The notes beneath the pieces are model-generated. The model saw nothing but the letters and a program-made list of their open reading frames with translations, ran no database searches and was not told the origin of the DNA. From contig CM059431.1 of the NCBI GenBank assembly GCA_030390025.1, positions 151,902,001 to 151,966,000 on the forward strand: 64,000 nt of DNA. The letters run 5' to 3'. The translations under genes and the position numbers were made by a program. Positions 32,556 to 59,239 of this stretch are shown here, piece by piece; position 1 is the first letter of the stretch, and each line of letters opens with the position of its first letter. Source of the DNA: Squalus acanthias (taxonomy: Eukaryota).

Positions 32556-33224
32556 GTCATTAGAGCAAAGGAGGTTGAGGTGTGATTTGATAGAGGTTTA
32601 CAAGATTATTACGGGCTTGGATAGGCTAGACGTGCGAAGACTGTTTCCACTAGTTAATGGTACAAGGACTAGGGGACACAGATTTAAGTTTTTGGGCAAG
32701 CGATACAAGGGTGAATGTGAGGAAAAACATTTTTACACAGCGAGTGGTGATGACTTGGAACTCGAAGACGACGGAATTGGTGGAAGCGGAGGCACTCAAT
32801 TTATTCAAGGGGAGGCTGGATAGGCACGTGAGGGAAATAAACTTGCAGGGCTACGGGGAAAGAGCGGGGGAATGGGACTGACTGGATGCTCTACAGAGAG
32901 TCGGCACATACTCGATGGGCCGAATGGCCTCCTTCTGTGCCGTTTCGACTCGATGATTATGACTCCACTGCTGAAGCTCAATCATGACTGTTCTCTTTGA
33001 ATCTTATGCAATACGTGCCTTGTTTTAACGGGAATCGAGTATGTTCATCCGGGGAAAGCAGTAAAAATCAAACGCACAGAACAAAAGGGAAGACATATTT
33101 CCTGATACGTGTACATTTTCGCAACAATAATCTCGTTTTCGTCCCAACTGAAAGAAATTCATTCTAAAACGGAACTCGATCTGCAATTAAGCTCTAGTTA
33201 GGAAAGGAAGCTCTGGTTTGATCT

Positions 33225-34120
33225 TCATGTTTTGTTAACCAAGTTGCGAATCAATGCCCAGGGAGATTTCACTAATCTCACCAGCTCTTCCCTGAATTTG
33301 GTTTGTGTCGCAGCATAAATGTACGTGTTTGTGCAGGAGATAAAGTACAAGAGCATAAATCCGGTTGCAGAGGCGCTGTATGCAGGAGATATATAATCAG
33401 GTCGAACATGAATGGCCAGGTAGTTAATTAAATAACTAACGAGAGATGTCAGCCACAACAATGTAACACTGCCTGTCACACTGAACTGTAAAATGATGGC
33501 TTTCCTCCGGCTCTCCATCTCAGAATCGCTCTGATTCTCACTGCAGTTACCCCGGAGTCTCCTGCGGGCTCTACTGGCAGCTAGAATACGCCTGACTGTC
33601 AAACAATTGAACAGTAATATCAAAGCGAAGGGAAGCGCTGTACATACAACAGTTTGGAAGCTGAGAACGCTATACCTGCAGGCGAGGTAAAAAAGTAAAT
33701 TTTTAAGCGGCAAACCCAGTGAATCTTTTTAATGATTCGGTCAGTTCCAGATGCAAACGATAAGGGAATATCGATCGAACAGAACATAGACCGTTGTTAA
33801 GGCGGCGGCCGCAGTTCTCACTGTGCAATATTTCGTTTTAAACTTCTCACAACTTATCGCGACATATCGGTCAAATGTGAAGGTGACGGTAAACCACACG
33901 GACATATGGACGGCAACAGCATTCAAGTATATAAGCAACCTACAGACGGCAGTGAAGTTGAGGAATGAATGTGGAAAGTGATATGTAAAAACGCGGTACA
34001 GCAGCACATTGATGATCATGACCAGAAGATCTGCTGTTGCCATGGCCACCATGTAGACCGAGATACCTTTGGAAAGACCGCATTTTCCTCTGGAGAGAAT
34101 CACGATTGTCAATAGTTACG
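33225..34120 (-). pseudogene. GPR139/GPR142-like class A GPCR pseudogene, exon 2
   Basis: Paralogue of 55095-55996. In-frame TAA right after the acceptor (cag|CG TAA versus cag|CG AAC), a 5-nt deletion near 33780 and a 1-nt deletion near 33665. DRY and NTYIY motifs remain. Confidence 0.9.
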
Positions 34121-34449
34121 CTGCAAGAAAGAGGGACAAGCTGTCAGTAACGGGCATGCTCGGATAAATCTCATTACATATTGTGGGGAAGTGTGCAGAT
34201 GTGTCCCTGTGCAGGCGGAATTTCAATTATATAGGCGAGCGTGAACGAAGAGGTTTTTTAAAAAAATAAACATTTAACACTCAATATAGAGGAACTGAAA
34301 ATCCGCCGTTCTTCACTGCAGACTTCAGACAGACATCGCCAAATATTAAATAAATTTCACAGCAATTAATGTAAAGATATGAATTCAAACGAAACATTCA
34401 GTTGAGAAAACATCATTCAATTTAGGTCGAAACTCTGCGCTTTTTCTCT

Positions 34450-35695
34450 GTAAAGTGCTGATAAGTGGCAGGTAACATTCGCGACACAGAAGTGGAAGGC
34501 AATGATTATCTTCAACGAGCGAGAGTCCAACCACCGCCCCTTGACATTCAATGGTATTAGAATCGCCAAATCCCCCACAATCAAATTCCTGGGGGTCACC
34601 ATTGACCAGAAACTTAACTGGGTGAGCCCCTTAAATACTGTGGCAACAAGAGCAGGTCAAAGGCTAAGTATTCTGTGGCGAGTTTCTCACCTCATGTCTC
34701 CCCAAAAACATTCTACTATCTACAAGGCACAAGTAAGGAGTGTTTCTTTAAATTCGTATTTGGGATGTGTGCGTCTTTGTCAAGGCCAGCATTTCTTGCC
34801 CATCGCTCATTGCCCTTGAGAATGTGGTGGTGAGCCGCATTCTTGAACCGCTACAGTCCGTGTGGTGATGGTACTCCCACAGTGCTGTTAGGGAGGGAGT
34901 TCCATGATTTTGACCCAGCGACGATGAATGATCGGCGATATATTTCAAGGTCAGGATTGTGTGTGAGTTGGAGGGGAGATTCGAAGAGCTGATGTTCCCA
35001 TTCGCCTGCTGCCCTTGTAATTCTAGGTGGTAGAGTTCGCGGGTTTTGGAGGAGCTGCCGAAGAAGCCTTGGCGAGTTGCTGCAGTGCATCTTGTAGATG
35101 GTACACACTGCAGCCACGGTACGCCGGTGGTGGAGGGGGAGAAAGTTTAAGGTGGTGGAGGGGCTGCCAATCAAGCGGGCTGCTATGTCCTTGATGGAAT
35201 ACTCTCCACTTCCCTGGATGAGTGCAGCTCCAACAACACTCAGGAAGCTCGACAACATCCAAGAAAGAGCAGCATGCTTGATTGGCACCCCATCCACCAC
35301 CCTAAACATTCACTATCTTCAACACCGACGTACCGTGGCTGCAGTGTGTATAATATAGAAGATGCACTGCAGCAACTCGCCAAAGCTTCTTAGGCAGCAC
35401 CTCCGAAACCCGCGAACTCTTCTACATAGAAGGACAAGGGCAGCAGGCGCATGGGAAGGCCTCCAGCAGAAAGTTACCCTCCAAGGCACACAAAATCTTG
35501 ACTAAGCAGTATATCGCCATCCCTTCATCGTCGCTGGGTCAAAATGCTGGAACTCCCTACCTAACAGCACTGTGGGATTACCTTCACCACACGGACTGCA
35601 GCTGTTCAAGAATGCGACTCACCACCACCTTCTCAAGGGCAATTAAGGAGGACCTTGCCAGCGACGCCCGCATCCCATAAACGAATACAAAATAA
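34450..35695. mobile_element. Intronic CR1/L2-group LINE 3' fragment (+) with an antisense copy of the same family inserted (about 34745-35192)
   Basis: Same family as 21715-23545. Arms 34750-35192 and 35258-35695 are reverse complements. Confidence 0.8.
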
Positions 35696-36204
35696 TCGCC
35701 TGGGAAGCCCGGGGGTGGGGGGAGCTGCTCTTAACAGATCGGGAGCTGGTTGAGGCGCGAAGGTTCTTTGCAGCCAATGGGAGGGGATAAGCAACCTGAG
35801 AGACAATTATTGCTCCAAATATCTATCAAAGTCCCCTGTTGGGTGGAGCTGGCTGAAGTCCGTGCAATTATCAATGTAAAATAAACAGGCTACAAGTGTA
35901 CAACTGAAGCGATTACCATTTCCGCGAAGAAACACATCCTGTACTGATCTCTAGACTGTTGGAGGGACCGGGGGAATGTCAGCTACGCCCTCCCTCAGTA
36001 CAGGGAGGAAAGGCGAGCGACCAGGCACCCACGATCTACCGACCAGCCTCACCAGCCGCGTGGACTGGTTGGATTCCCACTGACATTCACCAACATAACC
36101 CGGTGGATAAGTGACTCTGCAATGAGAACCTTCTCGGAATCATTACATAATCATTAACACAGAGATAGTCAACAGCCAATAGACAACAGGTTTCACTGAC
36201 TTAC

Positions 36205-36274
36205 CGGGAATGCCAAAGGCTGCGAGAGCAGGATAGTAAATGATGCTGACCATTTGAATTGTTGGCAGTGCCAT
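36205..36274 (-). pseudogene. GPCR pseudogene exon 1 (MALPTIQMVSIIYYPALAAFGIP)
   Basis: 70-nt ATG-initiated exon ending in G|GTAAGT; phase 1, matching the exon 2 acceptor. Confidence 0.88.
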
Positions 36275-36689
36275 TTTTATTTTAGAAGAATATGTGACTT
36301 CTGTCCGGCAGTATGGTTAGCATCAGAGTGCACATGCGATCCATAAGCACTCTCCCTTTACAGAATACTCGGTGCCCCGTTGATAAATTTAGTCACGCTG
36401 CAATTGGCGTTAGTTACAGTCACTTAACCAACAAGGCAAGATTTTCCGCTTCAGTGTGCCTTGACAACAAAGGAGACCTTTTAAAACTCAGTTCATGAAA
36501 CTTCATCAATTCAAATTAATGAACGGGAACTCATAGCAGTTGGAATGTACTGTGCACATGCACCGTGATCCCCCAAGGTAACATACCACACGGGCCCTGC
36601 GTTAGAATTACTGGTGCCTCGTAATAATTCGTGCAATCTTAACGCATTCATTATTTAGCTGTATTTAGCTTTGTACTATGATGATAAAT

Positions 36690-39600
36690 GGAGGTGACCC
36701 GACTCTAAGTATACTCGTGGTGACTCTACTCCAACATTACTGGTGGTGACTCCAATCTAACGTTAATGGTGGTGACTCTACTCTAACATTACTGGTGGTG
36801 ACTCTAATCTAACGTTAATGTTGGTGATTCAAATCTAACATTACTGGTGGTGACTCTACTCTAACATTACTGGTGGTGACCCTACTCTAACATTATTGCT
36901 GGCGTCTCTACTCTACCCTTACTGGTGGTGACTAGATTCTAACATTACTGGTGGTGACTATACTTTAACATTACTGGTGGTAACCCTACTCTAACATTAC
37001 TGGTGATGGCCCTACTCTAACATTATTGATGAACACAGTCCTCTGACATTACTGCTGGTGATCATATTCTAACATTACTGGTGGTAACTCTACTTTGACA
37101 TTGCTGGTGGTGATCATACTCTGACATTACTGCTAGTATACTCTCACATTACTGGTGGTGACTCTACTTTCACATTACTGGTGGCGACCCTGCTCCAGCA
37201 TTCCTGGTGGTAACCCTAATCTATCATTACTGGTGGTGGCCCTACTCTAGCATTACTGGTGGTGAGTCTACTATAACATTACTGGTGGTGACCCTGTTCT
37301 AACATTACTGGTGGTGACCCTGCTCTAGCATTACTGGTGGTGATCATATTCTAACATTACTGGTGGTAACTCTACTTTGACATTGCTGGTGGTGATCATA
37401 CTCTGACATTACTGCTAGTGTACTCTCACATTACTGGTGGTGACTCTACTTTCACATTACTGGTGGTGACCCTGCTCCAGCATTCCTGGTGGTGATTCTA
37501 CTGTAACATTCCTGGTGGTAACCCTAATCTATCATTACTGGTGGTGACCCTACTCTAGCATTACTGGTGGTGATTCTACTATAACATTCCTGGTGGTAAC
37601 CCTAATCTATCATTACTGGTGGTGACCCTACTCTAGCATTACTGGTGGTGATTCTACTATAACTTTACTGGTGGTGACCCTGTTCTAACATTACTGGTGG
37701 TGACCCTGCTCTAGCATTACTGGTGGTGACCATAAACTAACATTTCTGCTGGTGTCTGTACTCGAACATTACTGTTGGTTACCCTGCTCTAACAATAATG
37801 GTGGTACTTCTATTCTAACATTACTGAAGGTGACCCTGCTCTTATATTACTGGTGAGGACCCTAATTTAAAATTACTGGTGGTGACTGCACTCTATCATT
37901 ACTGGTGAGGACACAGCTTAACATTACTGGTGGTGACTCTACTCGAACAATAATGGAGGTGACACTACTATATCCTTAATGGTGAGGACCGTACTTAACA
38001 TTACTGGTGGTGTCTGAACTTTCGAATTACCAGTTATGACACTACTCTAACAGTACTGGTGGTGACCTTACTCTAACATTACTGGTGGTGAACCCACTCT
38101 AACATTACTGTTGGTAACCCTACTGTAACACTACTGGTTGTGACTATACTCGAACATTACTGGTGCTGATCCTATTCTATCATCACTGGTGGTGACTATA
38201 CTTTTATATTATTGGTGGTGACCCTACTCTGACATTACTGGTGATGACCCTCCTCTAACATTATTGATGGTGACACTACTCTGACATTACTGGTAATGAT
38301 CATATTCTGACATTACTGGTGGTAACTCTACTTTGACATTGCTGGTGATGATCATACTCTAATAATCCTGGTGGTTCTTCTTCTCTAACATTACTGGTGG
38401 TGACCCAGCTCTAGCATTACTGGTGGTGGCTCTAATCTAACATTACTGCTGGTGAGTCTACTCTATCATTACTGGTTAGGACTACTTAACAATACTGGTG
38501 GTGCTTCTGCTCTAACATTACTGGTGAGGGCCCTGTTCTAACATTACTGATGATGACATCAATCTAACTTTAATGGAGGAGACCATACTCTAATCATTCC
38601 TTGTTGTGACTCTGCTCTAACTTTACTGGTGATGAGGCTCATCTAACTTAACTGGTGGAGACAATACTGGAACCTTACTGGCGATGAACCTATTCCAACA
38701 CTACTGGTAGTGACTCTACTCTAGCATTACTGGTGGTGACACGGCTCTAACATTATTGGTGAGGACCCAAAACTAATATTACTGGTGGTGACTCTACTCT
38801 ATCATTACTGATGGGGACACAACTTAACATTACTGGAGGTGACACTACTCTAACTTTACTGGTGAGAACCGTACTTAACATTACTGGTGGTGACCTTACT
38901 CTAATATTACTGGTGGTGATCATAAAATAACATTACTGGTGTTGACCCTACTCTAACAACAGTGGTGGTGCTTCGACTCCAGCAATACTGGTGGTGACCC
39001 GGCTCTAACATTATTGGTGGTGATCATAAAATAACATTACTGGTGTTGAGCCTACTCTAACAACACTGGTGGTGCTTCTACTCCTGCAATACTGGAGTTG
39101 ACCCTGCTCTAAAAATACTGGTGAGAACCCTAATGTAAAATTGTTGCTGGTGACTCTATTCTAACATTTCAGGTGAGGATCGTACTTAACATTACTGGTG
39201 GTGCTTCTGCTCTAACATTACTGGTGATGGCCCTATTCTAACATTACTGGTTATGACATTACGCAAACTTTAATGGCAGAGACCATACTCCAATCATTTC
39301 TGGCTGTGACTATGCTCTATCATTACTGGTAATGTGGCTCGTCCAACTTAACTGGTGGAGACAATACTGCAACCTTACTGGCGATGTACCTATTCTAACA
39401 CTACTGGTTGTGACTCTACTCCAGCATTGCTGGTTGTGACCCTACTTTAACATTACTGACCTGACAATATTCTAACATTACTGGTGGTGACCCTACTATA
39501 AAACTACTGTTGCTGAACCTACTTTAACATTATTGTTGATGACACTACTCTAGCATTATTGGTGGTGATGATATTCTAACATTACTGGTGGTGACTCTAC

Positions 39601-42600
39601 TCTGACATTGCTGTTGGTGATCATACTCTCACATTACTGGTGATATAATCTTACATTACTGGTGGTGACTCTAATCTCACAATACTGGTGGTGATCATAC
39701 TCTAACAGTACTGGTGGTGCTTCTACTCTAACATTACTGATGTTGACCCTGCTCTAATATTACTGGTGAGGACCCTACTCTAAAATTACTGCGGGTGATT
39801 CTACTTTAACGTTACTGGTGAGAATACTATTTAACATTACTGGATGTGACTCTACAATAACAACACTGGAGGTGACTCTACACTAACAATACTGGTGTGA
39901 ACCGTAGTTAACATTATTGTGGAGTTTCTTCTCTAACATTGCTGGTGAGGACACTACTATAACATTCCCGGTGGTGACTCTGTACTAGCATTATCGGTGG
40001 TGTCATGATTCTAACATTACTGGTGATGACCCTACTCTAACATTTATGGAGGAGACCATAATCTAACATTACTGGAAGTGACCCTTTTCTACCATTCCTG
40101 TTGGTGACCCAACTCTAACAATACTGCAGGTGATTATACTCTAACATTACTGGTGGTGACTCTACTCGAACATTACTTGTGGTGAATCTGTTCTAAAAGT
40201 ACTGATTGTGACGCTTCTCTAACATTATTGGTGGTGACCCAAATCTAACATTACTGGAGGTGATTATACTCCAACATTACTGGTGGTGACTCTACTCGAA
40301 CATTACTGGTGATGATTCTATTCTAAAAGTACTGGTGGTGACGCTACTCTCACATTATTTGGGGGTGACCCCACAATAAAATTACAGGTGGTGACCCTAC
40401 ACTCACGTTACTGGTAGTGATCATAAACGAACATTACTGGTGGTGAACCTACATTAACATTACTGGTGATGACCCTAATGTAATCCTACTGGTGGTGATT
40501 ATATTCTTACATTACTGGTGGCGACTATAATCTAACATTACTGGTGAGGACATAACTTCACATTACTGGTGTTGACTCTCCTCTAACAATACTGGAGATG
40601 ACACTACTTTAACTTTACTGGTGAGGACCGTACTTAACATTACTGCTATTGTCTGAACATTAGCATTACTGGTGGTGACTCTACGCTAACGTTACTGGTG
40701 GTGACCTTACTCTAACATACCTGTTGGTCAAATGTGAGCAGTCGCACAACACCACGTTTCTAGTCCAACAGCTTTATTTGAAATCACAAGCTTTCGGAAC
40801 GCTGCTCCTTCGTCAGCAGCGCTCCGACAGCTTGTGATTACAAATAAAGCTGTTGGACTATAACCTGGTGTTGTGCGACTTCTCACATTTGTCCACCCCA
40901 GTCCAACACCGGCATCTCCACATCATGATTACTGGTGGTGATCATAAAATATCATCACTGCTGTTGACACTATTCCAACACTACTGGTGTTGCATCCACT
41001 CTAACAATACTGGTGGTGACCCTGCTCTATCATTACTGGTGAGGACCATAATCTAAAATTACTGGTGGTGACTCTACACTAACAATTCTGGTGAGGACAC
41101 TACTTAACATTACTGTTGGTGAATCTACACTAATATTACTGGTGAGGACACTACTTAACATTATTGGTGGTGACTCTGCTCTAACAGTACTGGAGGTGAC
41201 TCTACTCTAACATTACTGATGAGGACCGTTCTTAACATTACTGGTGGTACTTCTGCTCTAACATTACGGTGAGGGCCCAACTCCAACATTACTGGCGACG
41301 ACCCTACTCTAACGTTAATGGCGGAGCCCATGCTCTTATCTGTTCTGGCTGTGACTCCGCTCTAACATTAGTGGTGGTGACTATATTCTAACATTACCGG
41401 TGGTGACCCTACTCTAAATTTAATGGTGGTGATCATATTCTAACATTACTGGTGGTGACTCTACTCTGATATTACTGGTGGAGATTATCTTCTAACATTT
41501 CTGGTGGTGACCCTACTCTGATATTACTGGTGGAGATTATATTCTAACATTTCTGGTGGTGACCCTACTCTGACATTGCTGGTGTTGATGATGCTATCAC
41601 ATTACTGGTGGTACACTCTTACATTACTGGTGGTGAATCTACTCTGACAAAACTGGTGGTGATCCTACTCTAACAAAACTAGTGGTGCTTGTACTCTAAT
41701 ATTACTGGTGGTTACCCTACTCTAAAATGACTGGATGAGGCTCTACTTTAACATTACTGGTGTGGACACTACTTAACATTACTGGATGTGACTCTACTAT
41801 AACAACACTGGAGGTGACTCTACACAAACATTCCTGGTGTGGACCGCAGTTAACATTATTGGCGGTTCTTCTTTTCTAACATTACTATTGAGGACACAAC
41901 TCTAACATTACCGGTGGTGACTCTACAGTATCATTACCTGTGGTTATCCGATTTTAACATTACTGGTGATGACCCTACTCTAACATTAATGGCGGAGACA
42001 AGAACCTAACATTACTGGATGTGACTAAGCTCCAACATTACTGGTGATGAGTTCAGTCTACATTAACTAGTGGAGACAATACGGTAACCTTACTGGCGAT
42101 GACCCTACACTAACACTACTGGTGGTGAGGAGACACTAACACTACTGGTGGTGACTCTAATCTAACATTAATGGTGGTGACCCTAATCGAACACTACTGA
42201 TGGTGACAGTACAATTGCATTCCTGGTGGTGACCCTAATCTACCATTACTGGTCGTGACCCTAATGTACCATTATTTGTGGTGACCCAACAATAACATTA
42301 CTGAAGGTGATGCTACTCTAAAATTACTGATGGTGACTCTACTCTAACATTATTGGTTGTGACACTCCTGTAATATTACTGTTGGTGATTCTACACTGAC
42401 ATTACTTTTGGTGACCCTATTATTACATTACTGGTGGTGACTCTACTAAAACATTACTGGTGGTGACTATACTTCAACATTACTGTTGGTGACTTTACTC
42501 TAACATTACTGTTGGTGACTCTACTCGAACATTACTGGTGGTGACTATACTTCAACAGTACTGTTGGTGACTCTACTCTAACATTACTGGTGGTGACCCG

Positions 42601-43510
42601 ACTGTAATAATAGTGGTGGTGACTCTACTCAAACATTTCTGGTGGTGACCCTAATCTAACATTACTGGTGGTGACTCTACTTTACCATTGCTGGTGGTGA
42701 ATCTACTCTAACATTATTGGTTGTGACTCTACTCTAACATAACTGGTGAGAACTCTACTTAACATTACTGGTGGTGACTCTACTCTAACAATAATGGAGA
42801 TGACTCTACTCTAACATTACTGATGAGGACCTTTCTTAACATTACTGGTGTTGCTTCAGATCTAACATTACGGTGAGGGCTCTATTACTACATTACTGGT
42901 GACGACGCTACTCTAACTTTATTGGCGGAGAGCATACTCTAATAATTTCTGGTTGTGACTCCGCTCTAACATTACTGGTAACTAGTCTAGTCTAAATTAA
43001 CTGCTGGAGACAATACTGTAAACTTACTGGCGATCAACCTATCCTAGCAGTACTGGTGGTGACTCTACTCTAGCATTGCTGGTGCTGACTATATTCTAAC
43101 ATTACTGGTGGTGACCCTACTCTAACAATACTGGTGGTGACCCTACTCTAACATTACTGGTGGTGACTATATTCTAACATTACTGGTGGTGACCCTACTC
43201 GAACATTACTGTTGGTGAATGTGCTTTAACATTAATGTTTGTGAACTACTCTAACATTACTGGTGCTGAACCTACTCTCACATTATTGTTGATGACACTA
43301 CTCTGACATTACTGGTGGTGATCATATGCTAACATTACTGCTGGTGACTCTACTCTGACATTACTGGTGATGATCATATGCTAACATTACTGCTGGTGAC
43401 TCTACTCTAACATTATTGGTGATGACCCTTCTCTAACATTGCCGATGGTGATCCGACTCTAACATTACCGATGATGATCCTTTCCTAAAATTACTGTTGG
43501 TGATCATAAG
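36690..43510. repeat. 26-bp minisatellite (consensus AACATTACTGGTGGTGACTCTACTCT), about 6.8 kb
   Basis: Direct tandem periodicity with diverged units. Confidence 0.97.
40729..40927. mobile_element. Penelope-like terminal fragment forming a long hairpin, with hammerhead core (minus strand, 40785-40816)
   Basis: Inverted arms of about 78 bp (40729-40807/40815-40891). Minus strand reads CTGACGA-A-GGAGC AGC GTTCC-GAAAGCTTGTG. Confidence 0.8.
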
Positions 43511-43519
43511 CTTTCATTT

Positions 43520-45533
43520 CATAATTGATATGACACGCTTGATAGTTGATAATGCACGCTTTTTAATTGATAATACGCGCTTAATAATTGACAGTACGCG
43601 TTTGATAATAGACAGGACACTCTTGATCATTGATAGGAGATGCCTGAGAATTGATAATACACGGTTGATAATTAATAGGACATGATTGATTATTGATAAG
43701 ACATGATTAATTACTGATAATTCACGCTTGATATTTGTTAGTACATGCTTGATAATTGATAATACACTCTTGATAATTGATAGGATATGCTTGATAATTG
43801 ATCGGACATGTTTGATAATTGATAGGACATTCTTGATATTTGATAATACACGTTTGATAATTGATAGGACATGTTTGATAATTGGTAATACTCGCTTGAT
43901 AATTGATAATACACGCTTGATAATTAGAAACATAGTAAAATAAGAGCAGGAGCAGGCCATTCGTCCCTTTGAGCCTGCTCTGCCATACAATATGACCATG
44001 GCTGATCCTGTATGTCACTACCATATCCCCGCTCTCTCCCCATAACCCTTGACGTCTTCAGCGTCTATAAATCTATCTATCTCCTTCTTAAATATATTCA
44101 ATGACTTGGCTTCCACTGACTTCTGTGCTAAAGAACTGCACAGTTTACCACCGTCTGAGTGAAGAAATTTCACCATCATCGCAGACTAAATGTCCTGCCC
44201 CGTATCCTGAGACTGTGACCCCTCGTTCTAGACTACCCAGTCAGGGGAAACATCCTCTCTGCTTCCAGTCTGTCTAGCCCTGTCAGAATTTTACACGTTT
44301 CAATGGGTTTCCCTCTCATTCTTCTAAACACGAATGAATACAAGTCTTGTCGACCCTATCTCTCCTCATACGAGAGTTATGCCATCCCATGATTCAGTCT
44401 GGTGAACCTTCGCTGCCCACCCTCTATGGCAAGTATATCCTTTCTTAAGTAAGGAGACCAAAACTGCACACATTACTCCAGGTCTGTTGTCACGAAGGCC
44501 CTGTATAACTGTAGTAAGACATCTTTGCTCCTGTACTCAAATCATCTTGCAATGATGGGCAACATACCATTTGCCTTCCTAACTGCTTGCTGCATCTCCA
44601 TGTTTGCTTTCAGTGACTGTTATACAAGGACACCCAGGTCCATTTTTACATCAACATTTCCCAATCTATCACCAGCTAAATAATGTTCTGCATTTCTGTT
44701 TTTCCTACCTAAGTGGATAACTTCACATTTATTCACGTTATACTGCATCTGCATGTATTTGCCCACTCACTCAACTTGTCTAAATCGCCTTGAAGCCTCT
44801 TTGCATCCTTCTCACAAATCACAATCCCACCTAGTTCCGTGTCGTCATTCAATTTGGAAATATTACATTTGCTTCCCTCAACCAAATCATTGATATATAT
44901 TGTGAATAGTGCCCAAGCACTGATCCCTGTGATACCCAACTATACACCGCCTGCCTCCTGAAAAATACCCATTTAATTCAACTCTCTGTTTCCTGTCTGT
45001 TAATCAATTTTAAATGCATGCCAGAATATTACCGCCAATCGCATGTGCTTTAACTTTTCAAACTAACCTCTTATTTGGTACTATATCAAAGGCCTTCTGA
45101 AAATCCAAATGCACCACATCTACTGATTCTCCCTTACCTATTCTACCATTTACATCCTCCAAAATGTATAGTAGGTTTGTCAAACACGATATCCCTTTCC
45201 TAAATCCATGCTGCCTTTTTCTAATCCCGTTGATATTTTCTAAGTGTCCTGTTATCACATCCTTTATAATAGATTCTAGCATTTCCCCTACTACTGATGT
45301 TAGGACGGGCTTGATAATTGATAGGAGACGACAGATAATTGATAATAGAGGTTTGATAATTGATAGCACCCACTTGATAATAGATAGGACATGTTTGGTC
45401 ATTGATTATACACGCTTAATAATTGATAGGACAGGCTGGATAATTGATAATACACGCTTGATCATTGGCAGGAAACGCTTGATAATTGATTATACACGCT
45501 TGAGAATTGACAGGACATGCTTTATAATTGATA
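43520..45533. repeat. 21-bp minisatellite interrupted by a CR1 (43926-45303)
   Basis: TTGATAATTGATA units at 43520-43925 and 45304-45533. Confidence 0.93.
43926..45303 (-). mobile_element. CR1 3' fragment, decayed
   Basis: HLDFQKAFD and FTIYINDL motifs; 3' stem-loop near 43940-44010. Confidence 0.88.
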
Positions 45534-48205: not shown

Positions 48206-48215
48206 AGTTCAGTCC

Positions 48216-49255
48216 CATAAGAACATAAGAACATAACAAATAGGAGCAGGAGTAGGCCATTCGGCCCCTCGAGCCTGCTCCGCCAATCAATAAGATCATG
48301 GTTAATCTTCTACCTCATCTCCACTTTCCTGCACTATCCCCATATCCCTTGATTCCCTTAATATTCAATAATCCATCGATCTCTGTCTTGAATATACTCA
48401 ACGACTGAGCCTCCACAACCCTCTGCGGTAGAGAATTCCAAAGGTTTACCACTCTCTGAGTAATTTTTCCACATCTCAGTCCTAAATGGCCGAACCCTTA
48501 GTCTGAGACTGTGCCCCATGGGTTCTAGACTCCCCAACCAGGGGAAACATCCTACCTGAATCTAACTTGTCAAGCACTTTAAAAATGTTGTTTGTTTCAA
48601 TGAGATGACCTCTCATTCTTCTAACCTCTATGGAATATAGGCCGAGTCTACTCAATCTCTCCTCATAGAACAATCCCCCACATCCAAGGAATCAGTCTGG
48701 TGAACCTTCGTTGCATTCCCTCTCTGACAAGTACATTCTTCATTAGGTTAGGACACCAAAACTATTCCATTTGCCATGTTCTTGCCCACTAACTTTGCCT
48801 GTCTCTAGCCCCTTGAAGCCTCCTTGCATCCACCTCACAACTTACCTCCCACAAAGGCATGTATCATCAGCAAACTTAGATACATTATATTTGGTCCCCT
48901 CATCCAAGTCATTGATATGGAATGTGAATATCTGAGACCAAATCATAGATCCTTGCGGTAACCCACTAGTTACAGCCTGCCAACCCGAAAATGAGCCGTT
49001 TATTCCGACTCTCTGTTTCCTGTCCGTTAACCAATACTCAACACATGCTAGTATATTACCCCGAATCCCATGAGCCCTAATTGTGTTTAAATTCTGCTTG
49101 TGTGGTACCTTATCCAATGCCTTCTGAAAATCCAAATAAACCACCTCCACTGGCTCTCACTTTACTATTCTGCTAGTTACAACCTCAAAACATTCTAATA
49201 GATTCGTCAAACACGATTTCCCTTTCATAAATCCGTGTTCCCTACTACTGATGTC
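48216..49255 (-). mobile_element. CR1 3' fragment with an internal deletion
   Basis: [15 protein letters not shown] and KFADDT motifs; (TTATGTTC)n tail at about 48216-48240. Confidence 0.88.
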
Positions 49256-49298
49256 ACATATTAGTCTATTTAACTTCAAGAACTGGTCAGAAATGCCA

Positions 49299-49354
49299 TC
49301 CTGAAAAGTTCAGTCGGTAGATACTCAGACCTTTAATCTGAGGGTCTAGGGTTC
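49299..49354 (+). pseudogene. tRNA-Lys(UUU)-derived fragment (D arm to start of T arm)
   Basis: GTTCAGTCGGTAGA..CTCAGACCTTTAATCTGAGGGTCTAGGGTTC. Confidence 0.75.
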
Positions 49355-49474
49355 CTTCCTGCTATGCAAATTAAACTCGTTATTTTGTGACAAACGTTTG
49401 CCACAAGACCTGATTTTTTCAAATATAATGGGGCTGCATGGAAGATGGAATTGAGCATTTTGATTTAAAAGCAG

Positions 49475-49515
49475 CGCCTGTATAGGGACTTGAACCCTGG
49501 ACCCACAGATTAAAA
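49475..49515 (-). pseudogene. tRNA-Lys(UUU) 3'-half fragment
   Basis: Minus strand reads TTTTAATCTGTGGGTCCAGGGTTCAAGTCCCTATACAGGCG. Confidence 0.75.
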
Positions 49516-50016
49516 CACTTACGCTCCTGTCCCTGTTTAATATTGCTCACCCAGTTCCCAATGGAAGGACACGCTTTACCTGCTGACATTGAACATGATT
49601 TTGGTCGCATCCTGCATTTCCTACTTTATTATTGGTTCAAAGGCTGTGGGCGTCGCCGGTATGCTGACACGAACGATTTCCTAATGGGCCTGCTGATTAC
49701 ATGTTGAGCACATCTTTGCAGTTACCTCAGCTTGTCAGTATTGCCTGATCTATAATCATTTTAAAAGATCCCTTCCTAACAATAATATCTGTCTATTAAT
49801 AAATTGAATAACTTACATATATGTGCACTTCCTGTCTACAAAAGCTCAATATACCTTTCAAGTTTCTTCCAGACTTTGGTGTCGAATATTTCGCCCATTC
49901 TAAAATGGCTTGCCCAGATTTAGGACTGAAACGGCCCTGTAACCGGTCACGCTGCAATTGCGCTCTTTCGCCAGTGGTGACGCTGTAGATTCTCGGTTTC
50001 GCATATTCCTTCGGAT

Positions 50017-50160
50017 TCAGAAGCGCTGAACCCCAATGCAGGACTTCATATGAAATATGGGCTGACACTTCAGTGCAGTACTGAGAGAGCGCTGCATCGT
50101 TAGCGACACTGTCCGTTGACTGAAACTTAAAAAGCCGGACCTATCTGCCCACTGACAGTG
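50017..50160 (+). mobile_element. Degenerate DeuSINE-like core (paralogue of 23965-24115)
   Basis: GGCTGACACTTCAGTGCAGTACTGAGAGAGCGCTGCATCGT. Confidence 0.5.
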
Positions 50161-50216
50161 GCTGTGTGTGAGAAATGTGAGCCGCTGAAAGCTGTTGCAC
50201 AGAATTGAATGCATGA

Positions 50217-50290
50217 TCATACATAGTTCAGTCGGACAACGATAATACTTTTAATCAGATGGATCCTGGGTTCAAGTCCTTGTACAAGTG
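50217..50290 (+). pseudogene. tRNA-Lys(UUU)-derived relic (paralogue of 24166-24239)
   Basis: ATAGTTCAGTCGG...CTTTTAATC...GGGTTCAAGTCC; the B box is retained. Confidence 0.72.
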
Positions 50291-50439
50291 CTGCTTTTTA
50301 ACATGGCCCCGTTCTATTGGGTCAGGACACAATGGGGGACGGAATTGCTGAGGAGAACAGCGCCTGCAACATTCACACCAAGATTACAGAATAATAACAG
50401 ATAACCACCATTATAAAACCATTCATTGTTTCAACACTA

Positions 50440-51715
50440 AAGTTTTGATGAACATTTATAAAACACTGGGTCGGCCTCACATGGAGCATTGTGTCCAATT
50501 CTGTCCTCCGCACTTTTGGAAGGATGTCAAAGCTTTGAGAGGGTTCAGGAAAGATGGACAAGAATGGTTCCAGGGATGAGCGACTTCAGTTACGTGGATA
50601 TATTGGAGAAGCTGGGGCTGTTCTCTTTACAGCAGAGAATGTTGAGAGGAGATTTGATAGAGGTGTTCAAAATCATGAGGGTCTAGACAGAGTTGATCGA
50701 GAGAAACTGTTCCCATTTGCAGAAGGGTCCAGAAGCAGACGGCACAGATTTAAGGTGATTGGCAGAAGAATCGAAGGCGACATGAGGAAAAACATTTATT
50801 TTCGCAGCGAGAGGTTAGGATCTGGAATGCACTGCCTGAGAGAGTGGTGGAGGCAGATTGAATCGTGGCTTTCAAAACGGAATTCGAAGGAACAAAATTG
50901 CAGTGCTAGCGGGAAAGGGCGGGGGAGTGGGACTCGCTGAAGTGCTGTTGCAGGGAGCCGGAAAGGGCCTCCTTCTGCGCTGTAATGAGCTTCCGAACAC
51001 ATATCCGCAGCATAACAAAGAACACATATTTCCACATCCGTAACATCGCCCTTCTCCACCCTTGTCTCAGCTCATCTGCGGCTAAATACTCATCCATGCC
51101 TTTGTTACATCTAGACTTGATTATTCCAACGCACTCCTGGCTGGTCTTCACATTCTACCTTACATAAACTTGAGGTCATTCAAAACTCTGCTGCCCGTGT
51201 CCTAATTCGCACCAATTCCCGTTCACCGATCTCCCCTGTGCTCACTGACCTACACTGTCTCCCGGTTAAGCAACGCCTCATTTTTAAAATTCTCATTCTA
51301 TTTTTCAAATCCTTCCAAGGCCTCGCCCCTTCCTATCTCTGAAATCTCGTTCAGCCCCACAACGCCCCCCAGATATCTGTGCTCCTCTAATTCTGCCCTC
51401 TTGAGCATCCCTGATTATAATCGCTCTTCAATTGGTTACCTTGCCTTCTGTTGCCACGGCCCTAAGCCCTGTAATTCATAGCCTAAACCTCCCTGCCTCG
51501 CTAGCTCACTTTCCTCCTTTAAGACGCTACTTAAAACCTACCTCTTTGACCAATCTTTTGGTCACCTGCCCTAATTGCTCCTCATGAGGCTCGGTGTCAA
51601 AGTTTTCCTCTCATAATACTCCTGTGCAGCGCCTTGGGACATTTTACTACGTTAAAGGCGCTATATAAATACAAGTAGCTGTTTTTGTTGCTGTAACCAT
51701 TCTATGATTCTATGA
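50440..51715 (+). mobile_element. CR1 3' fragment with L2 3' fragment (50986-51690) inserted in its tail
   Basis: Collinear with 24390-25675. Confidence 0.85.
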
Positions 51716-51809
51716 TAAAGGAAAATGTATCGGTTATTTAACCTGCAGCGTCTCATTCTAGTATCTGCAGTGTAAGGCAGTTAACGCTGACGTCCACATG
51801 TTCTACTTT

Positions 51810-54800
51810 GACCAGTATGTCCTTGGCCCAAATAGGACGGAGGCATTGCTGGATCTGGGGCTGGGGCTGAGGTGGGTCATCGTATCATAAGATTTAGATT
51901 AGCAATGGAGAAGAGCAAGGAGCAATCTAGTGTGGGAATATTAAACTGGAATAGGGCTAATTTCAATGAAATGCGAAAGGATCTAGCCAGGGTAAAATGG
52001 AACGAAAGGCTTAGAGGAAAAACTGTAACGGAACAATGGGTGATCATTAAGGAGGAGATGTTCCAATTACAAGCTAGGTACATTCCAACAAGAAGAAAGG
52101 GTAAGGGAACCAAAGCAAGGGCTCCTTGGGTGATGAGGGAGTTGGAGAAGATGCTGAAACAAAAAAGAGGGCATATGATGCATGTCAGGTGAATTCCTCA
52201 AGGGAGAATCAGACCAAATACAATAAATTGAGATGGGAAGTGAAGATGAAAATAAGATTGGCAAAGAGAGAAAATGAGAGTAGAATGGCAGTTAACATAA
52301 AAGGGAACACAAAAATCTTCTACCGGCATGTAAACAGTAAGCGGGTAGTAAGAGGCAGGGTGCGGCTTATTAGGGACAAAGAAGGTAATATATACTTAGA
52401 GGCGCAGGAGAAGGGTAGAATTCACAATGAGTACTTTTTTCGGTGTTTCCTAAGGAGGTGGATGCTGACAAAATATTGGCAGAAGTGGAAAAGGTAGCGG
52501 TGAAAATTGATAGACAGTATGTACTGGAAAGGCTGGGTATGATTAGAGTGTATTAGTCGAATGGTCCAGATGACTTGCATGCCTGCTTGCTCAGGGAATT
52601 GGGGGAGGAGATCGCAGAAGGGCTTGCCATAATTTTCCAATCTTCCCTAGATGCGGGGGTAGTGCCTGAAGACTGGAAAGTGATAAATGTGACACCATTG
52701 TTCAAGAAAGCGTGTAAGGACAATCCTAGCAACTACAGGCCGGTCAGTTTAACATCAGTGGTTGGTAAAGTATTAGAAACAATGGCCCAAAAATTAGTGA
52801 GTGAGCCTTCGTGCGAGGGGAAGGCCTTCCCACGATCTCTCACTGCGCGCTGGCTTTTTCAGTCCGAGCTCGCACGAACTTGCTGTTCTGGACAGCAGCT
52901 GTGCAGGGCTTTCGTATCCCACAGGCGTAGTTAATTCGTGCGAGCTGTGGGATCACGTGACTCAGTTAGAGCCAATGGCAGCACACCATCTTTCATTCAT
53001 AGCTTTCACACCACGGCAGTGAAAGCTATGAATACTATACCCCCCCAAAAGAACAGCTAAACCTCAATTAAATAAAAAAAAACCCTATCACATTAATAAA
53101 ATAAGTATAGTTAAATAAATTAACCATTTTAAACAAAAAATTAAATTTTTGAAAAAATTTTAAATCTTTTAAAAAGTTATAAAAATAAACTTACCTGTCT
53201 TTAAAGACTCTAAAAAAGATATACCTGTTACAAAAAATTCAAACTAATACTTAATTAAGTACTTACCTTGTTAAAAGAGGGTCTTACACCTCCTTTCTTT
53301 ATGTCTAAAATCTTCCATGCTTACCTGCGCGTCCAAAGCACGAAGTGCACTGCGTGCGCACAGCCTGTAGCGCGCACGCGGTTCACCGAGGAACCGCCCC
53401 ATTTTGAATTCACCAAGTGCCGGTTTTCAGCGCATGCGCAGTGCATGCAAATAACCGGCAATTGGAGACGGAATACGCGAGAGCATACAGTGCGTTCTCT
53501 CGCGTAGCGGCACTAATTTTTGGGCCAATAATCGAGGAAAATGTAATAGGCACTTGGAGAGGTTTAAGCTAATTAAGGAAAGCCAACACAGATTTGTAAA
53601 AGGCGGATCGTATTAGACTCATCTGATTGAATTTTTTGATGAAGTAACAGGGAGGATTGATGAAGGGAATGCAATTGATGTTGTCTATATGGATTTTCGG
53701 AAGGCGTTTGACGAAGTACCACATCGAAGGCTGGTTAGCAAAATTGAAGCTGATGGAATAGGTGAGTCAGTGGCAGCTTGGAAAAGGAATTGGCTTAAGG
53801 ACAGAAAACAGCGAGTTGTGGTAAATGGCTGCTTTTCAGACTGGAGGATGGCAGACAGTGGTGTTCCCCAAGGATCAGTGCTGGGGCCCCGGTTTTTTTG
53901 ATATATATAATTGACTTGGAGATTGAAATACAGAGCAGAATTTCTAAATTTGCCGATGACACCAAACTTGGCGGTGTGACAAAGTGTGAGGATGTTGCCA
54001 ATCGACTGCAGCAGTACATAGTTAGACTTGGAGAACGGGCAGACAAGTGGCAGATGGAATTTAATACAGAGAAATGTGAGGTGATGCATTTTGCCAGAAG
54101 GATCAGGGAGAAGCAATATACCCTTAATGGCACAGTTTTAATGAATCTGCAGGGACAGAGCGACCTGGGAGATAATGTGCATAAATCCCTGAAGGTGGCA
54201 GGACAAATTGAGTGAGTGGTTAGCAAAGCATATGAGATTTTGGGCTTCATAAATAGAGGTATTGAGTACAAAAGTTATTAAGTTATGCTGATCCTTTAGA
54301 AAACGCTGGTTAGGCCACAACTGGAGTATTGCGTCCAGTTCTGGTCACCACAATTTAGGAAGGATATGAAGGCCCTTGAGAGGGTGCAGAGGAGATTTAC
54401 CAGAATGGTTCCGGGGATGAGGGATCTTAGCGACAAGGACAGATTGAGAAGCTGGATTTATTTTCATTGGAGCAAAGTCGGTTTGATAAAGGTTCACAAG
54501 TTTATCGCGGGTATGGATAGGCTGGATGTAGAAAGGCCGTTCCCACTAGTTGATGGTACGAGGACTGGGGGAAACAGATTTAAAATTTTGTGCAGGAGAT
54601 ACAGGGGGGAATGTGAGGATAAACTTTTTTACGCAGGTAGTGGTGAGGAGCTGGAACTCGCTGCCGACGGAAGTGGTTGAAGCGGAGACACTCATTTTTT
54701 TCAAGGGCAGGCTGGATAGGAACTTGAGGGAAATAAACTTGCAGGGCTACGGGGATAGAGCGGGGGAATGGGACTTACTGGATTGCTCTACAGAGAGCCG

Positions 54801-54860
54801 GCACATACTCGATGGGCCGAATGGCCGCCTTCTGTGCCGTTATGACTCTATGACTATGAC
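51810..54860 (+). mobile_element. CR1 ORF2 fragment and 3' UTR, interrupted by a MITE
   Basis: [18 protein letters not shown] and KFADDTKL motifs; (TATGACTC)n tail. Confidence 0.9.
52784..53526. mobile_element. Non-autonomous DNA transposon (MITE), possibly PIF/Harbinger-group
   Basis: Terminal inverted repeats GGCCCAAAAATTAGTG / CACTAATTTTTTGGGCC, 3-bp AAT duplication, AT-rich core. Absent from the paralogous site at about 26780. Confidence 0.85.
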
Positions 54861-55094
54861 TCCACTGCTGAAGCTCAATCATGACTGTTCTCTTTGAATC
54901 TTATGCGATACGTGCCTTGTTTTAACCGGAATCGAGTATGTTCACCCGGCCAAAGCAGCAAATAAATGTTTCCTGATACCTGTTCATTTTCGCAACAATA
55001 ATCTATTTGTATCCCAACTGAAGGAAGGCCTATCAAAAACGGAACACGATCTGCAATTAAGCTCTAGTTAGGATAGGAAGCTCGGGTTTGATCT

Positions 55095-55996
55095 TCATAT
55101 TTTGTTAACCAAGTTCCGAATCAATGCCCAGGGAGATTTCACTAATCTCACCAGCCCTTCCCTGAATCTGGTTTGAGTCGCTGCATAAATGCACGTGTTT
55201 GTGCAGGAGCTCAAGTACATGAGCATAAATCCGGTTGCAGATGCGATGTATGCAGGAGATGAATAATCGGGTCGAACATGAATGGCCAGGGAATTAATTA
55301 AATAATTGACGATAGATGTCAGCCATAACAATATAAAGCTGCCCGTTACACTGAAAAGTAAAATGATGGATTTCCTCCGGCTCTCCATCTCTGGATCGCT
55401 CTGATTCTCCCTGCAGTGACCCCGGAGTCTCCTGCGGGCTATACTGGCAGCTAGAATACGCCTGACCGTCAAACAATTAAACAGAAATATCAATGCGAAA
55501 GGAAGCCCTGATGAAATAACAGTTTGGAACCAGACGAATGCTATACCCGCAGGCGAGGTAAAAAAGTCGATTTTGAAGCGGCAACCCCAGTGAATCCTGT
55601 TAATGATGCGGTCAGTTCCAGATGAAAACGATAAGGGGATATCGACCGAGCAGAGCAGAACGGAGACCGTTGTTATGACGGCGGCCGCAGTTCTCACTGT
55701 GCAATATTTCCTTTTAAACTTCTCACAACTTATCGCGACATATCGGTCAAATGTGAAGGTGACGGTAAACCACACGGACATATGGAGGGCAACAGCATTC
55801 AAGTATATAAGCAACCTACAGACGGCAGTGAAGTTGAGGAATGAATGTGGAAAGTGATATGTAAAAACGCGGTACAGCAGCACATTGATGATCATGACCA
55901 GTAGATCTGCTGTTGCCATGGCCACCATGTAGACCGAGATACCTTTGGAAAGTCCGCATTTTCCTCCGGAGAGAATCACGATTGTCAGTAGGTTCG
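55095..55996 (-). CDS. GPR139/GPR142-like class A GPCR, exon 2 (spliced product 323 aa)
   Basis: Open frame with hydrophobic TM segments, ANLL (TM1), ATADLL (TM2), C...TFDRY (TM3), ECL2 Cys, LPF (TM5), LLWL (TM6) and CTNTCIY (TM7). Pyrimidine tract and CAG acceptor immediately upstream (AG at 55998-55997). Confidence 0.92.
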
Positions 55997-56324
55997 CTGT
56001 AAGAAAGAGGGGCAAGCGGTCAGTAACGGACACACTCGGAGAAATCTCACACCATATTGTGGGGAAGCGTGCAGATGTGTGCCTGTGCAGGCGGATTTTT
56101 AATTATAATGGCGAGCGTTAACGAAGAGTCTTTTTAAAAAAACATTGAACACTCAATATAGAGAGACTGAAAATACGCCGTCCTTCCCTGCATACTTCAG
56201 ACAGACATCACCAAATATTTAATTTAATTTCACAGCGATGAATACAATGATATGAATTCTAACGAAACATTCATTTGAGAGATCATCATTCAATTTAATT
56301 TGGAATTCAGCTCTTTTAATATGC

Positions 56325-58240
56325 ACAGTGCTGATAAACGGCAGGTAACAAAAGCGCCACCGAAGTGCCACTCAATGATTATCTTCAACAAGCGAGAGTC
56401 CAACCAACGTCCCGTGACATTCAATGGTACTAGAATCGTCCAATCCCCCCACCATCAAATTCCTGGATTCAACATTGACCAGAAACTTCACTGGACCAGC
56501 CACATAAATACTGTGGCAACAAGAGCAGGTAAAAGGCAAGGTATTCTTTGGCGAGTGACTCACCGCGAGTCTCCCCAAAGACTTTCTACCACCTACAAGG
56601 CACAAGCAAGGAGAGTTTCTTTTTATTCATATTTGGGATGTTGGCGTCGCTAGCAAGGCCAGCATTTCTTGCCCATTCGTAATTGCCCTTGAGAAGGTGG
56701 TGGTTCGCAGCCTTCTTGAAACGCTGCAGTCCGTGTGCTGAAGGTACTCCCACAGTGCTGTTAGGGATGGATTTCCAGGATTTTGACCCAGCGTCGTTGA
56801 ATGATCGGCGATATACTTCTAAGTCAGAATGGTGTGTGACTTGGAGGGGAACTTGGAGGTGGTGGTGTTCCCATTCGCCTGCTGGCCTTACCTTCTAGGT
56901 GGAATAGGTCGCGGGTTTGGGAGGTGCTGCCGAAGAAACCTTGGCGAGTTGCTGCAGTGCATCTTGTAGATGGTACACACTGCAGCCATGGTACGCCGGT
57001 GGTGGAGGGAGTGAATGTTTAAGGTGGTGGATGGGGTGCTAATCAAGCGGGCTGCTTTGTCCTGGATGGAATACTCTCCACTTCCCTGAATGACTGCAGC
57101 TCCAACAACACTCAAGTAGCTCGACATCATCCAAGACAAAGCAGCATGCTTGATTGGCACCCCATCCACCACCTTAAACATTCACTCCCTTCCCCACCGA
57201 CGGACCATGGCTGCAGTGTGTACAATCTACAAGATGCACTGCAGCAACACGCCAAGGCTTCTTCGGCAGCACCTCCGAAACCCGCGGCCTCTTTCACCTA
57301 GATGGAGAAGGGCAGCAGTCGCATGGGAACACCACTACCTCCAAGATCCCCTCCAAGTCACACATCATCCTGACTTAGAAGTATATCGGCGATCTTTCCT
57401 AGTCGCTGGATCAAAATGCTGGAACTCCCTACCTAACAGCACTGTGGGAGTACTGTAGGATAGAGTGTACCTGTAGGATTTATTAAACATTATTAAGATT
57501 GCATAACCATTATCAAATAACTGAATTGTATGTTAAAAACCTAAAAAAGCCAGTATAAAATGGAGAATGGCTGAGACCAAAGCATGATGGTAAATTTAAG
57601 CCAACATTATGTTAACTGCGAGAATAGTGCTCAGGTAGTATAGATTTTATGTTATGTTTAAAACAAAAAGGCAGTGAGGGACAAAACATAGATAATGGGC
57701 AATGGGAAAGGCAAAAGATGTAAAAGTTCTCAGAGAAAAGCTCACAGCTGAAAAAGGGAGGGAATCATAGACCGTACTTGTGACGTTCAGAATGGTGGGA
57801 CAGCCCAAGCAGCTGCAAATTGCTGTGTATTTTGACGGAAAAAAAGGTATAAAGCAAAAGCTATTGAACACTGAAAGCAGCGCGCAGCGAGAAACCAGAG
57901 GATGGGAAGCTTCAGTCAACATAACACAGCAAGATAATAAAGAGACCGCGCCAAAGTCACTCGGAAGGAACGCCGGGGTTCAGCGAACAAATTGTGACTA
58001 TCGTCTTGCTCAGTAGTACTTTCTCTGTACTGGATGTTTAATGCTTAATAAACCTGCTTTACTTATACACAATATACCTGTACCCAGAGTGGTTTGTGTA
58101 GTCGCGGACAAATTATTATAAGGAGCTTTTAAAAGCTACAGTACATTCACCACACGGATGCAGCGGTGTAAGAAGGCGGCTCACCACAACCTTCTCAAAG
58201 GCAATTAAGCGACGCCCACATCCCACAAACGAATTAAAAA
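56325..58240. mobile_element. Intronic inverted pair of CR1/L2-group LINE fragments (paralogue of 34450-35695)
   Basis: Antisense copy at about 56620-57065; sense copy at 57066-57453 and 58141-58240. Confidence 0.8.
57454..58140 (+). mobile_element. Solo LTR (687 bp) in the GPCR intron
   Basis: TGTAG...CTACA termini, perfect GTAC duplication, AATAAA at about 58047. Absent from the paralogous site at about 35578. Confidence 0.88.
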
Positions 58241-58755
58241 CAATCGCCTGTGAAGCCCGGGTTTGGGGGGAGCTGCTCGGTAACAGAGCGGGAGCTGGTG
58301 GAGACGCGAAGGTTCTTGGCTGCCGAGGGGAGTGGAGCCGCTGCCTGATAGGCAATTATTGCTGAAAGTATCTTTCAAAGTTCCCTGTTGGTTGGAGTTG
58401 GCTGTAGTCCGAGCCGAGAAATTATTAACGTAAAATAAACAGGGTACAAGTGTACAACTGATGTGATTACCATCCACACGAAGCAACACTTCCTGTACTG
58501 ATCTCTATATTGTTGGAGGGGCCGGTCGGAGTCAGCTTCGCTCTCCCTCAGTTTAGGGAGGAAAGGCGAGCGCCGGCACTCACGAGCTACCGACCAGCTT
58601 CTCCGGTCGTGCGGACTGTTTGGCTTCTCACTGATATTCACCAACTTATCCTGAAGGATAAGTGACACTGCAATGAGAACATTCTCGGAATCATTACATA
58701 ATCATTAACACTGAGATAATCAACAGCCATTAGACAACATGATACACTGACTTAC

Positions 58756-58825
58756 CGGGAATGCCAAAGGTTGCGAGAGCAGGATAGTAAATAATGCGGA
58801 CCAATTCAATTGTTGGCAGTAACAT
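58756..58825 (-). CDS. GPR139/GPR142-like GPCR exon 1 (MLLPTIELVRIIYYPALATFGIP)
   Basis: 70-nt exon from ATG to G|GTAAGT. It joins exon 2 in frame (G+CG = Ala) and completes TM1. Confidence 0.9.
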
Positions 58826-58904
58826 TTTTTTTAACAAGAATATGTGACTTCTGTCCGGCTTTATGGTTAGCGTCAAAGTGTACATGCGATCCATAAACAC
58901 ACTC

Positions 58905-58957
58905 CTTTTATAGAAAACTCGCTGCCCCGGTGAGACTATTAGTCACAGGACAATTGG
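58905..58957 (-). promoter_or_regulatory. Putative core promoter: TATAAAAG (58912-58905) and CCAAT (58957-58953)
   Basis: Canonical motifs about 80 and 130 nt upstream of the ATG, within a unique region conserved between the paralogues. Confidence 0.6.
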
Positions 58958-59239
58958 CGTTAGTTACAGTCACTAAACCAACAAGGCAAGATTCTCCGCA
59001 TCAGTGTGCCTGGGACAACAAAGGTTACATTTTACAATTCAGTTCATAAAACTCCAACAATTCAAATGAATGGACGGGAACTCATAGCAGATGGAATGTA
59101 CTGTGCACAAGCACCGTGATCCATCACGGGAACATCCCACACGGGCACTGCGTTAGGTTACTGTTGCCTCCTAAGAATTCGTGATATATTTAACTCATCC
59201 ATTAGATTGTTTAATTTATCTATCTACCATGCTGATAAA

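Follow-up and report, generated by a model that had tools for sequence, protein, structure and literature searches.

Two neighbouring receptor genes in the genome of the shark Squalus acanthias, one intact and the other dead, raise the question of whether they form an isolated pair or one locus of a large receptor family and, in the latter case, of what such a family could serve for. The pair lies in a 64,000-nucleotide stretch of animal DNA rich in long interspersed nuclear elements (LINEs), on contig CM059431.1 (positions 151,902,001 to 151,966,000 of the forward strand); this whole stretch is referred to as the window. The contigs of the genome are labelled C1, C2 and so on, the window belonging to C7. 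The two genes, A and B, are both on the minus strand and their start codons, at 58825 and 36274, are spaced by 22,551 bases. Once spliced, exons 1 and 2 of gene A give 323 open codons that encode an intact class A G-protein coupled receptor (GPCR), and gene B is a pseudogene. The original prediction, made from the letters of the window, i.e. two paralogous two-exon seven-transmembrane genes in the same orientation about 22 kb apart with one intact and one dead, is confirmed to the base. So are the phase-1 intron inside transmembrane helix 1 (TM1), the short N-terminus (24 residues ahead of N1.50) and the threonine replacing proline at 7.50.

The answer to the first part of the question is that genes A and B belong to a GPCR family whose copies in the genome number about two thousand or more.

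Copy number, receptor class and turnover

A protein search of the 3.7-Gb genome gave 4,625 candidates. The best 131 of these are all full-length or nearly so, with 64-100% identity, and 37 of them fall in C7:150.5-153.6 Mb, the region surrounding the window. Two motifs were then counted genome-wide: the TM3 motif has 1,881 matches (control 4) and the TM7 motif 1,732 (control 6). From the first 100 TM7 rows ten were removed as non-family, four having no profile match and six after inspection of the letters. The range covered by both motif lists contains 68 TM3 and 90 TM7 loci, 43 of which are in common; the union of the two motifs is thereby estimated at about 2,250-2,420 loci and the total at 2,470-3,930. 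This family total depends on the two motifs and on their overlap, and the overlap ratios may fail elsewhere because the first motif rows cover C1-C7 only; among loci of other subfamilies 18 of 31 carry neither motif. Members are present on C1, C3, C5, C6, C7, C12, C18, C21, C26, C29, C30 and C31 as well as on many small contigs, and their clusters are frequently near contig ends (e.g. C3:206-208.7 of 208.8 Mb). With a copy number in the thousands, not one or two, the tandem pair is indeed one locus of a large lineage-specific family, as had been proposed.

The gene A protein matches the Pfam profile 7tm_1 (E 9.8e-23) and the same match is found in all 49 aligned family members. The odorant receptor (OR) profile 7tm_4 matches neither the gene A protein nor any of these 49, and the two coding exons of a family gene are unlike the intronless coding region of the ORs. 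A weak Srx match appears in 11 of the 49 members, and look-alikes in the protein atlas include clusters labelled Srw, Srx and FMRFamide-receptor. The AlphaFold model of the gene A protein displays seven helices, with a mean predicted local distance difference test score (pLDDT) of 73; its TM-score with peptide receptors is about 0.7, in a Foldseek comparison that did not discriminate among class A receptors. In a sample of 106 intact genes N1.50, D2.50, D3.49-R3.50, N7.49 and Y7.53 are each kept in 105-106 members. The family carries the TM3 cysteine, which is missing from GPR139, and is devoid of P6.50. The DRY motif noticed in the gene pair is present there but does not extend to the family, where it is a minority form: 86 of the 106 members have Phe at 3.51. 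All 119 named sequences among the top 120 public relatives come from sharks and rays. In other species some database models fuse a family member to a zinc-finger, integrin-like or trypsin-like sequence (the last two identified by eye), probably a read-through annotation showing the neighbours.

The state of the copies was examined at 60 motif-listed loci of C3, C6 and C7, picked regardless of state. Exon 2 is open and preceded by its acceptor in 31 of them, and an intact exon 1 lies within about 8.5 kb for 20 of these 31; in the C1 cluster 14 of 23 loci are open. Tandem expansion with pseudogenisation (birth-and-death), first suggested by the pair, thus holds across clusters, about half of the sampled copies being broken. 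What multiplies is the whole unit, from the promoter through exon 1 and the intron to exon 2, and the tandem clusters so formed occupy at least ten large contigs. We infer that the genome contains roughly 750-2,000 intact genes, a figure that could go up on account of assembly indels and down on account of orphan second exons.

A lineage next to GPR139

The pair had been described as GPR139-like. This description stands in so far as GPR139 is the nearest characterised relative, gene A being 28% identical to the GPR139 of the same genome and 22% to its GPR142-like gene; it does not stand as to origin, the family coming from a sister lineage and not from GPR139 itself. One-to-one orthology with GPR139, which the original prediction had named as the competing outcome, fails: true GPR139 is a separate single-copy locus on C18, and the family lies outside the GPR139/142 clade. 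The GPR142-like gene is on C24 and further single-copy relatives are on C17 and C9. The family, GPR139, the GPR142-like gene and the C17 and C9 genes all have the phase-1 intron before N1.50, with the acceptor at the same position; a range of 10 kb yielded no exon 1 for GPR139, the GPR142-like gene or the C9 gene. Among solved structures the family profile places GPR139 first (65 bits), CCR1 being next (50). Only the family profile did so: GPR139 was not ranked first in the PDB search with the single gene A protein.

The phylogeny cited here is a careful run on 41 rows. The chondrichthyan family forms one clade (96/87), and a gene carried by amphibians, sturgeon and bichir is its sister (100/99). 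Next outside are the C17 and C9 groups (95/94), which join coelacanth and bony-fish orphans, followed by amphioxus genes (88/86). GPR139/142 fall outside; the root branch is weak (64/13), with only three invertebrate-type outgroups. The sister gene was found as a single orthologue in frogs, salamanders, a caecilian, sturgeon and bichir. Each named species has a single cluster of the amphibian orthologue, at 66-74% identity to the salamander query, and the 25 matches to this query include no teleost or amniote orthologue. Being single-copy, the frog orthologue gives cheap access to the ancestral function. Within the family, the protein of the chimaera Callorhinchus is nested (96/85) and rays share the subfamily of the window (100/100); diversification thus began before the chimaeras split off. 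The tree places the family as the shark, ray and chimaera co-orthologue of the single-copy amphibian, sturgeon and bichir orphan.

Orphans close to GPR139/142, namely GPR210A/B and a third unnamed set, are described in coelacanth, gar and fishes in the accessible part of the vertebrate class A survey of Rinne et al. (2019, PMC6504862), which in that part includes no shark. We infer that the C17 and C9 genes are GPR210-like, by a match to the GPR210 names in which no identifier was matched.

Variable pocket, promoter module and duplicated unit

The cell-facing, G-protein half of the receptor is kept nearly fixed while the ligand pocket and the outer loops diversify. The ratio of nonsynonymous to synonymous substitution rates (dN/dS), calculated on sets from which near-identical copies had been thinned by hand, is in nine of nine subfamilies smaller for the inner side than for the outer one (0.15-0.42 versus 0.27-1.26, one three-gene group reaching 2.58). 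Column entropy over the 106 genes is 0.76 bits for the inner and 1.93 bits for the outer side. Pocket positions 3.29, 3.32, 6.51 and 6.58 accept 11-12 residue types each and the core switches are nearly invariant. Positive selection was evaluated with our own implementation of the M1a/M2a site models, using a fixed topology and no gene-conversion term. Twice the log-likelihood difference (2dl) is 27.8 in the subfamily of the window, with 10 of 14 sites on the outer side, and 48.6 in the C1 subfamily. Only these two subfamilies count, since one of six null simulations reached 9.9.

In the accessible parts of PMC5430874 and PMC8807744, the residues of GPR139 that bind Trp and Phe are F3.33, H5.43, W6.48 and N7.38. 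The four are kept together in none of the 106 members; aromatic amino acids are thus not the expected ligands. Asp occupies position 3.37 in 89 of the 106 members and the pocket is rich in acidic residues.

A de novo motif search over 15 promoter clusters revealed a 26-bp module located about 120-240 bp ahead of the start codon, with a score of 436 versus 201-234 in background sets. Of the 44 regions in which exon 1 was found, 42 contain the module; of the 32 in which it was not, one does. Within the window it matches only the promoters of B and A (Table 1), the next match being at 8.0 bits. In 10 of 14 promoter clusters a second motif stands exactly 23 bp after the module, and in 12 of 14 the module is followed by a TATA box at 43-46 bp; these spacing counts exclude one cluster without module. 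We take the module to resemble forkhead-type and homeodomain-type sites, and the second motif, loosely, an EBF site. The module is in neither the promoter of the single-copy C17 gene nor three OR upstream regions. A 26-bp satellite is found upstream of the promoter in 16 of 16 fetched members of C7 type and in none of 60 other regions. As it is confined to the C7-type cluster, it marks one subfamily and not the whole family.

In the window, genes A and B have 887 of 972 aligned bases in common (91%). The duplicated unit (32586-39251 versus 54482-61777) also spans the intron, the promoter and the 26-bp satellite array. Gene B keeps both splice sites intact, but its codon 25 is a stop instead of the Asn of TM1 (34118-34116), and the region from TM4 to extracellular loop 2 (ECL2) is scrambled by deletions of 5 nt (about 33788) and 1 nt (about 33665). 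The positions of all elements are given in Table 1.

Table 1. Elements of genes A and B, numbered from the first letter of the window.
Element	Position	Strand	Remarks
Gene A exon 1, from the start codon up to the phase-1 donor within TM1	58756..58825	-	70 nt, GT donor
Gene A intron, GT-AG	55997..58755	-	contains repeat fragments and an inverted repeat
Gene A exon 2, remaining TM1 through stop	55095..55996	-	AG acceptor
Gene A second promoter motif and TATA box	58906..58935	-	motif identified visually, at the spacing usual in the family
Gene A family promoter module	58958..58983	-	26 bp, 31.5 bits
26-bp satellite array upstream of gene A, in the duplicated unit for this subfamily	59244..61782	.	
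Gene B (pseudogene) exon 1	36205..36274	-	frame intact
Gene B exon 2, codon-25 stop and two small deletions	33225..34120	-	
Gene B family promoter module	36408..36433	-	36.4 bits
26-bp satellite array upstream of gene B	36689..43503	.	

Downstream of both genes, a LINE-rich block has been duplicated as well (23956-27753 versus 50008-54291, 84-85%), so that the duplicated unit may reach well past the genes. Each intron contains one long inverted repeat built of repeat fragments, with arms at 80-85% (34809-35643 and 56744-57453). A 21-bp tandem repeat occurs four times in the window (16063-16645, 43521-43925, 45301-45533 and 61800-62647), two of these copies abutting the 26-bp satellite. In exon 2, a tract of 268 bp (55683-55950) shows three A/B differences versus 75 across the other 629 bp. 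We do not claim gene conversion between A and B at this tract, which was picked post hoc and is conserved in other members too (6-24 differences).

Could the family result from passive amplification or from the assembly? A redundant gene would in this case have been carried along by satellite- and LINE-driven segmental duplication, with haplotype duplicates inflating the counts. Such an origin would fit with LINE-rich, satellite-flanked units, half of whose copies are broken, and with the 14 of 106 sampled intact genes that have a near neighbour at 99% identity or more (one pair, on two small contigs, reaches 99.9%). But purifying selection acts on the inner side in all nine subfamilies, and the 106 genes fall into 20 clusters at under 70% identity across which the promoter module is kept. 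Moreover, subfamilies are shared with rays and a chimaera, public proteins hold 1,676 distinct family clusters at 90%, and the satellite is restricted to a single subfamily (16 of 76 regions). Passive amplification or artefact is thus already largely refuted, and we regard it as very improbable.

Candidate function and comparison with known repertoires

The family is built like a combinatorial sensor array: its receptors are many and turn over rapidly, their pockets are diverse, and they have one conserved signalling face and a single promoter code in common. From these features we consider it somewhat probable that the family serves as a chemosensory repertoire for water-borne molecules. Under this view, the common module would direct every member to a single cell type, with one or a few members expressed per cell; the G protein would be the same for all of them, and together they would read a broad chemical space, as odorant receptors do. 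More tentatively, the cells may be olfactory, taste or solitary chemosensory and, because the pocket is rich in acidic residues, many ligands may be basic molecules or peptides.

To our knowledge, the vertebrate GPCR families of comparable size are otherwise chemosensory. In the same genome, the odorant receptors amount to three matches at E 1e-20 among 128 scored. The class C cysteine-rich exons number 93 among 140 scored, 73 of them in V2R-type clusters on C5 (2.3-10.7 Mb and 45.2-45.7 Mb). The annotation of catshark has 32 canonical genes, a number that these 73 exons roughly double; eight V2R first exons with their promoters were located. Small OR and V2R repertoires of sharks are also reported in the accessible parts of PMC11979771 and PMC10116579. 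The sensory interpretation gains from this small size of the known chemosensory repertoire.

Several observations weigh against a sensory role, or against the extent of the expansion. The module is absent from 370 kb of V2R cluster (best match 13 bits) and from eight of eight V2R promoters; the family does not, therefore, share this control element with the known shark olfactory receptors. In five other subfamilies 2dl is 0.5-9.5, which leaves positive selection convincing in two of seven only. Among the best 131 matches 52 are on high-numbered contigs, some of which may be assembly or haplotype duplicates. According to the accessible part of PMC10116579, catshark olfactory neurons are all positive for TRPC2 and Go and already have V2Rs. 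Neutral to mildly unfavourable is the fact that the 50 most nose-specific catshark transcripts, as presented in the accessible part of PMC11979771, include no GPCR.

As for expression, no RNA source is listed for exon 2 of gene A. Three runs of the same species, with tissue unrecorded and guessed to be RNA, contain family sequence at collapsed depths up to about 180. If these runs are RNA from non-sensory organs, a widespread cell type would be favoured, which would also count against a sensory role. Compared with a family member that has a short intron, the three runs yielded short paralogue contigs over exon 2 only, and no exon 1, intron or splice joint. Nor is there a sign of splicing in four long Logan- or JGI-derived proteins, which start in the intron or inside exon 2. 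The exon 2 contigs are thus a weak hint of transcription, silent on cell type.

The main rival to a chemosensory role is immune or barrier sensing. Leukocytes or epithelia would then use the family to sense microbial peptides and metabolites, in the manner of the formyl-peptide or Mas-related receptors but with a far larger repertoire. The presence of family sequence in three of three runs of unrecorded tissue is what blood-borne cells would give, although these runs may be DNA. A host-microbe race explains the diversification of the pocket and the positive selection equally well. The family promoter is unlike those of V2Rs, and forkhead-type and EBF-like sites also act in lymphocytes. However, the immune GPCR families that we know of have tens, not thousands, of members, and the family is not mentioned in the small supplementary files of the shark spleen single-nucleus and bamboo shark immune-genome papers. 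Tandem families of any kind commonly lie at the same chromosome ends as immune arrays. We therefore judge an immune repertoire unlikely, while giving it serious weight.

In a reproductive or endocrine role, sperm, oviduct or neuroendocrine cells would use the repertoire for pheromone, gamete or peptide recognition. Reproductive recognition systems rarely need thousands of receptors, and we find this role improbable, even if the nearest solved relatives of the family are peptide and amino-acid receptors. In the accessible part of PMC11979771, several shark V2R and OR genes are testis-enriched, which would also agree with it.

The chemosensory interpretation can be extended to a fuller proposal, for and against which we see about equal chances: cartilaginous fishes would possess a further vertebrate chemosensory family, independent of OR, TAAR, V1R, V2R, T1R and T2R. 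An ancestral gnathostome orphan, still single in amphibians and sturgeon, would in about 400 million years have given rise to one or two thousand working genes that follow a promoter code of their own. If this is true, the chemical-sensing repertoire of sharks is among the largest in vertebrates, not the smallest. Whatever the tissue, a large vertebrate receptor repertoire seems to have arisen here anew and independently. Cartilaginous fishes combine few known chemoreceptors with a keen sense of smell, and the family makes this puzzle of shark olfaction directly testable.

No description of the family was found in the full-text literature searched; most subscription papers, the catshark atlas supplements and those of preprints were outside this search and may list it. 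The term 'GPR' is absent from the main text of the catshark atlas (PMC11979771). The database name of the family is unmatched in the supplements of four shark or skate papers (12 of 24 files being unsearched in one and one file being a scan in another), and PMC12294341 has GPR139 only within a reference. In reviews, GPCRs and olfactory receptors are said to be few in cartilaginous fishes (PMC8455134 and PMC10116579, in their accessible parts), and a whale shark paper, likewise in its accessible part, speaks of a paucity of GPCRs. Yet sharks, rays and Callorhinchus have RefSeq and UniRef entries called 'probable G-protein coupled receptor 139' that are members of the family; the name was assigned automatically, after the closest human protein. 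This label hid a receptor family that outnumbers the V2R set of the genome some 25-50 times.

How does the family compare with systems already known? GPR139 and GPR142, two class A orphans that L-Trp and L-Phe activate, have in common with it the phase-1 intron of TM1, and GPR139 is its best profile match among solved structures; in contrast to the family they are separate single-copy loci, placed outside it in the tree. The C17 and C9 groups, putatively of GPR210 type, are the closest outgroups of the family and its amphibian orthologue, the direct orthologue of the family belonging to a third lineage. Nematode Srw genes are chemosensory expansions; the invertebrate FMRFamide-receptor and Srw-like expansions resemble the family as look-alikes but are distant from it, the family being an independent expansion in jawed vertebrates. 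Closer in organisation are the OR, TAAR and V1R families, which also display clusters, a pseudogene load, a short N-terminus, a variable pocket with a fixed inner face and shared promoter motifs, together with a comparable size: OR genes reach 1,948 in elephant according to the accessible part of PMC11979771. The vertebrate ORs nevertheless belong to an unrelated class A branch carrying 7tm_4; the promoter of the family is not demonstrably of OR type, and a sensory role of the family is a candidate one.

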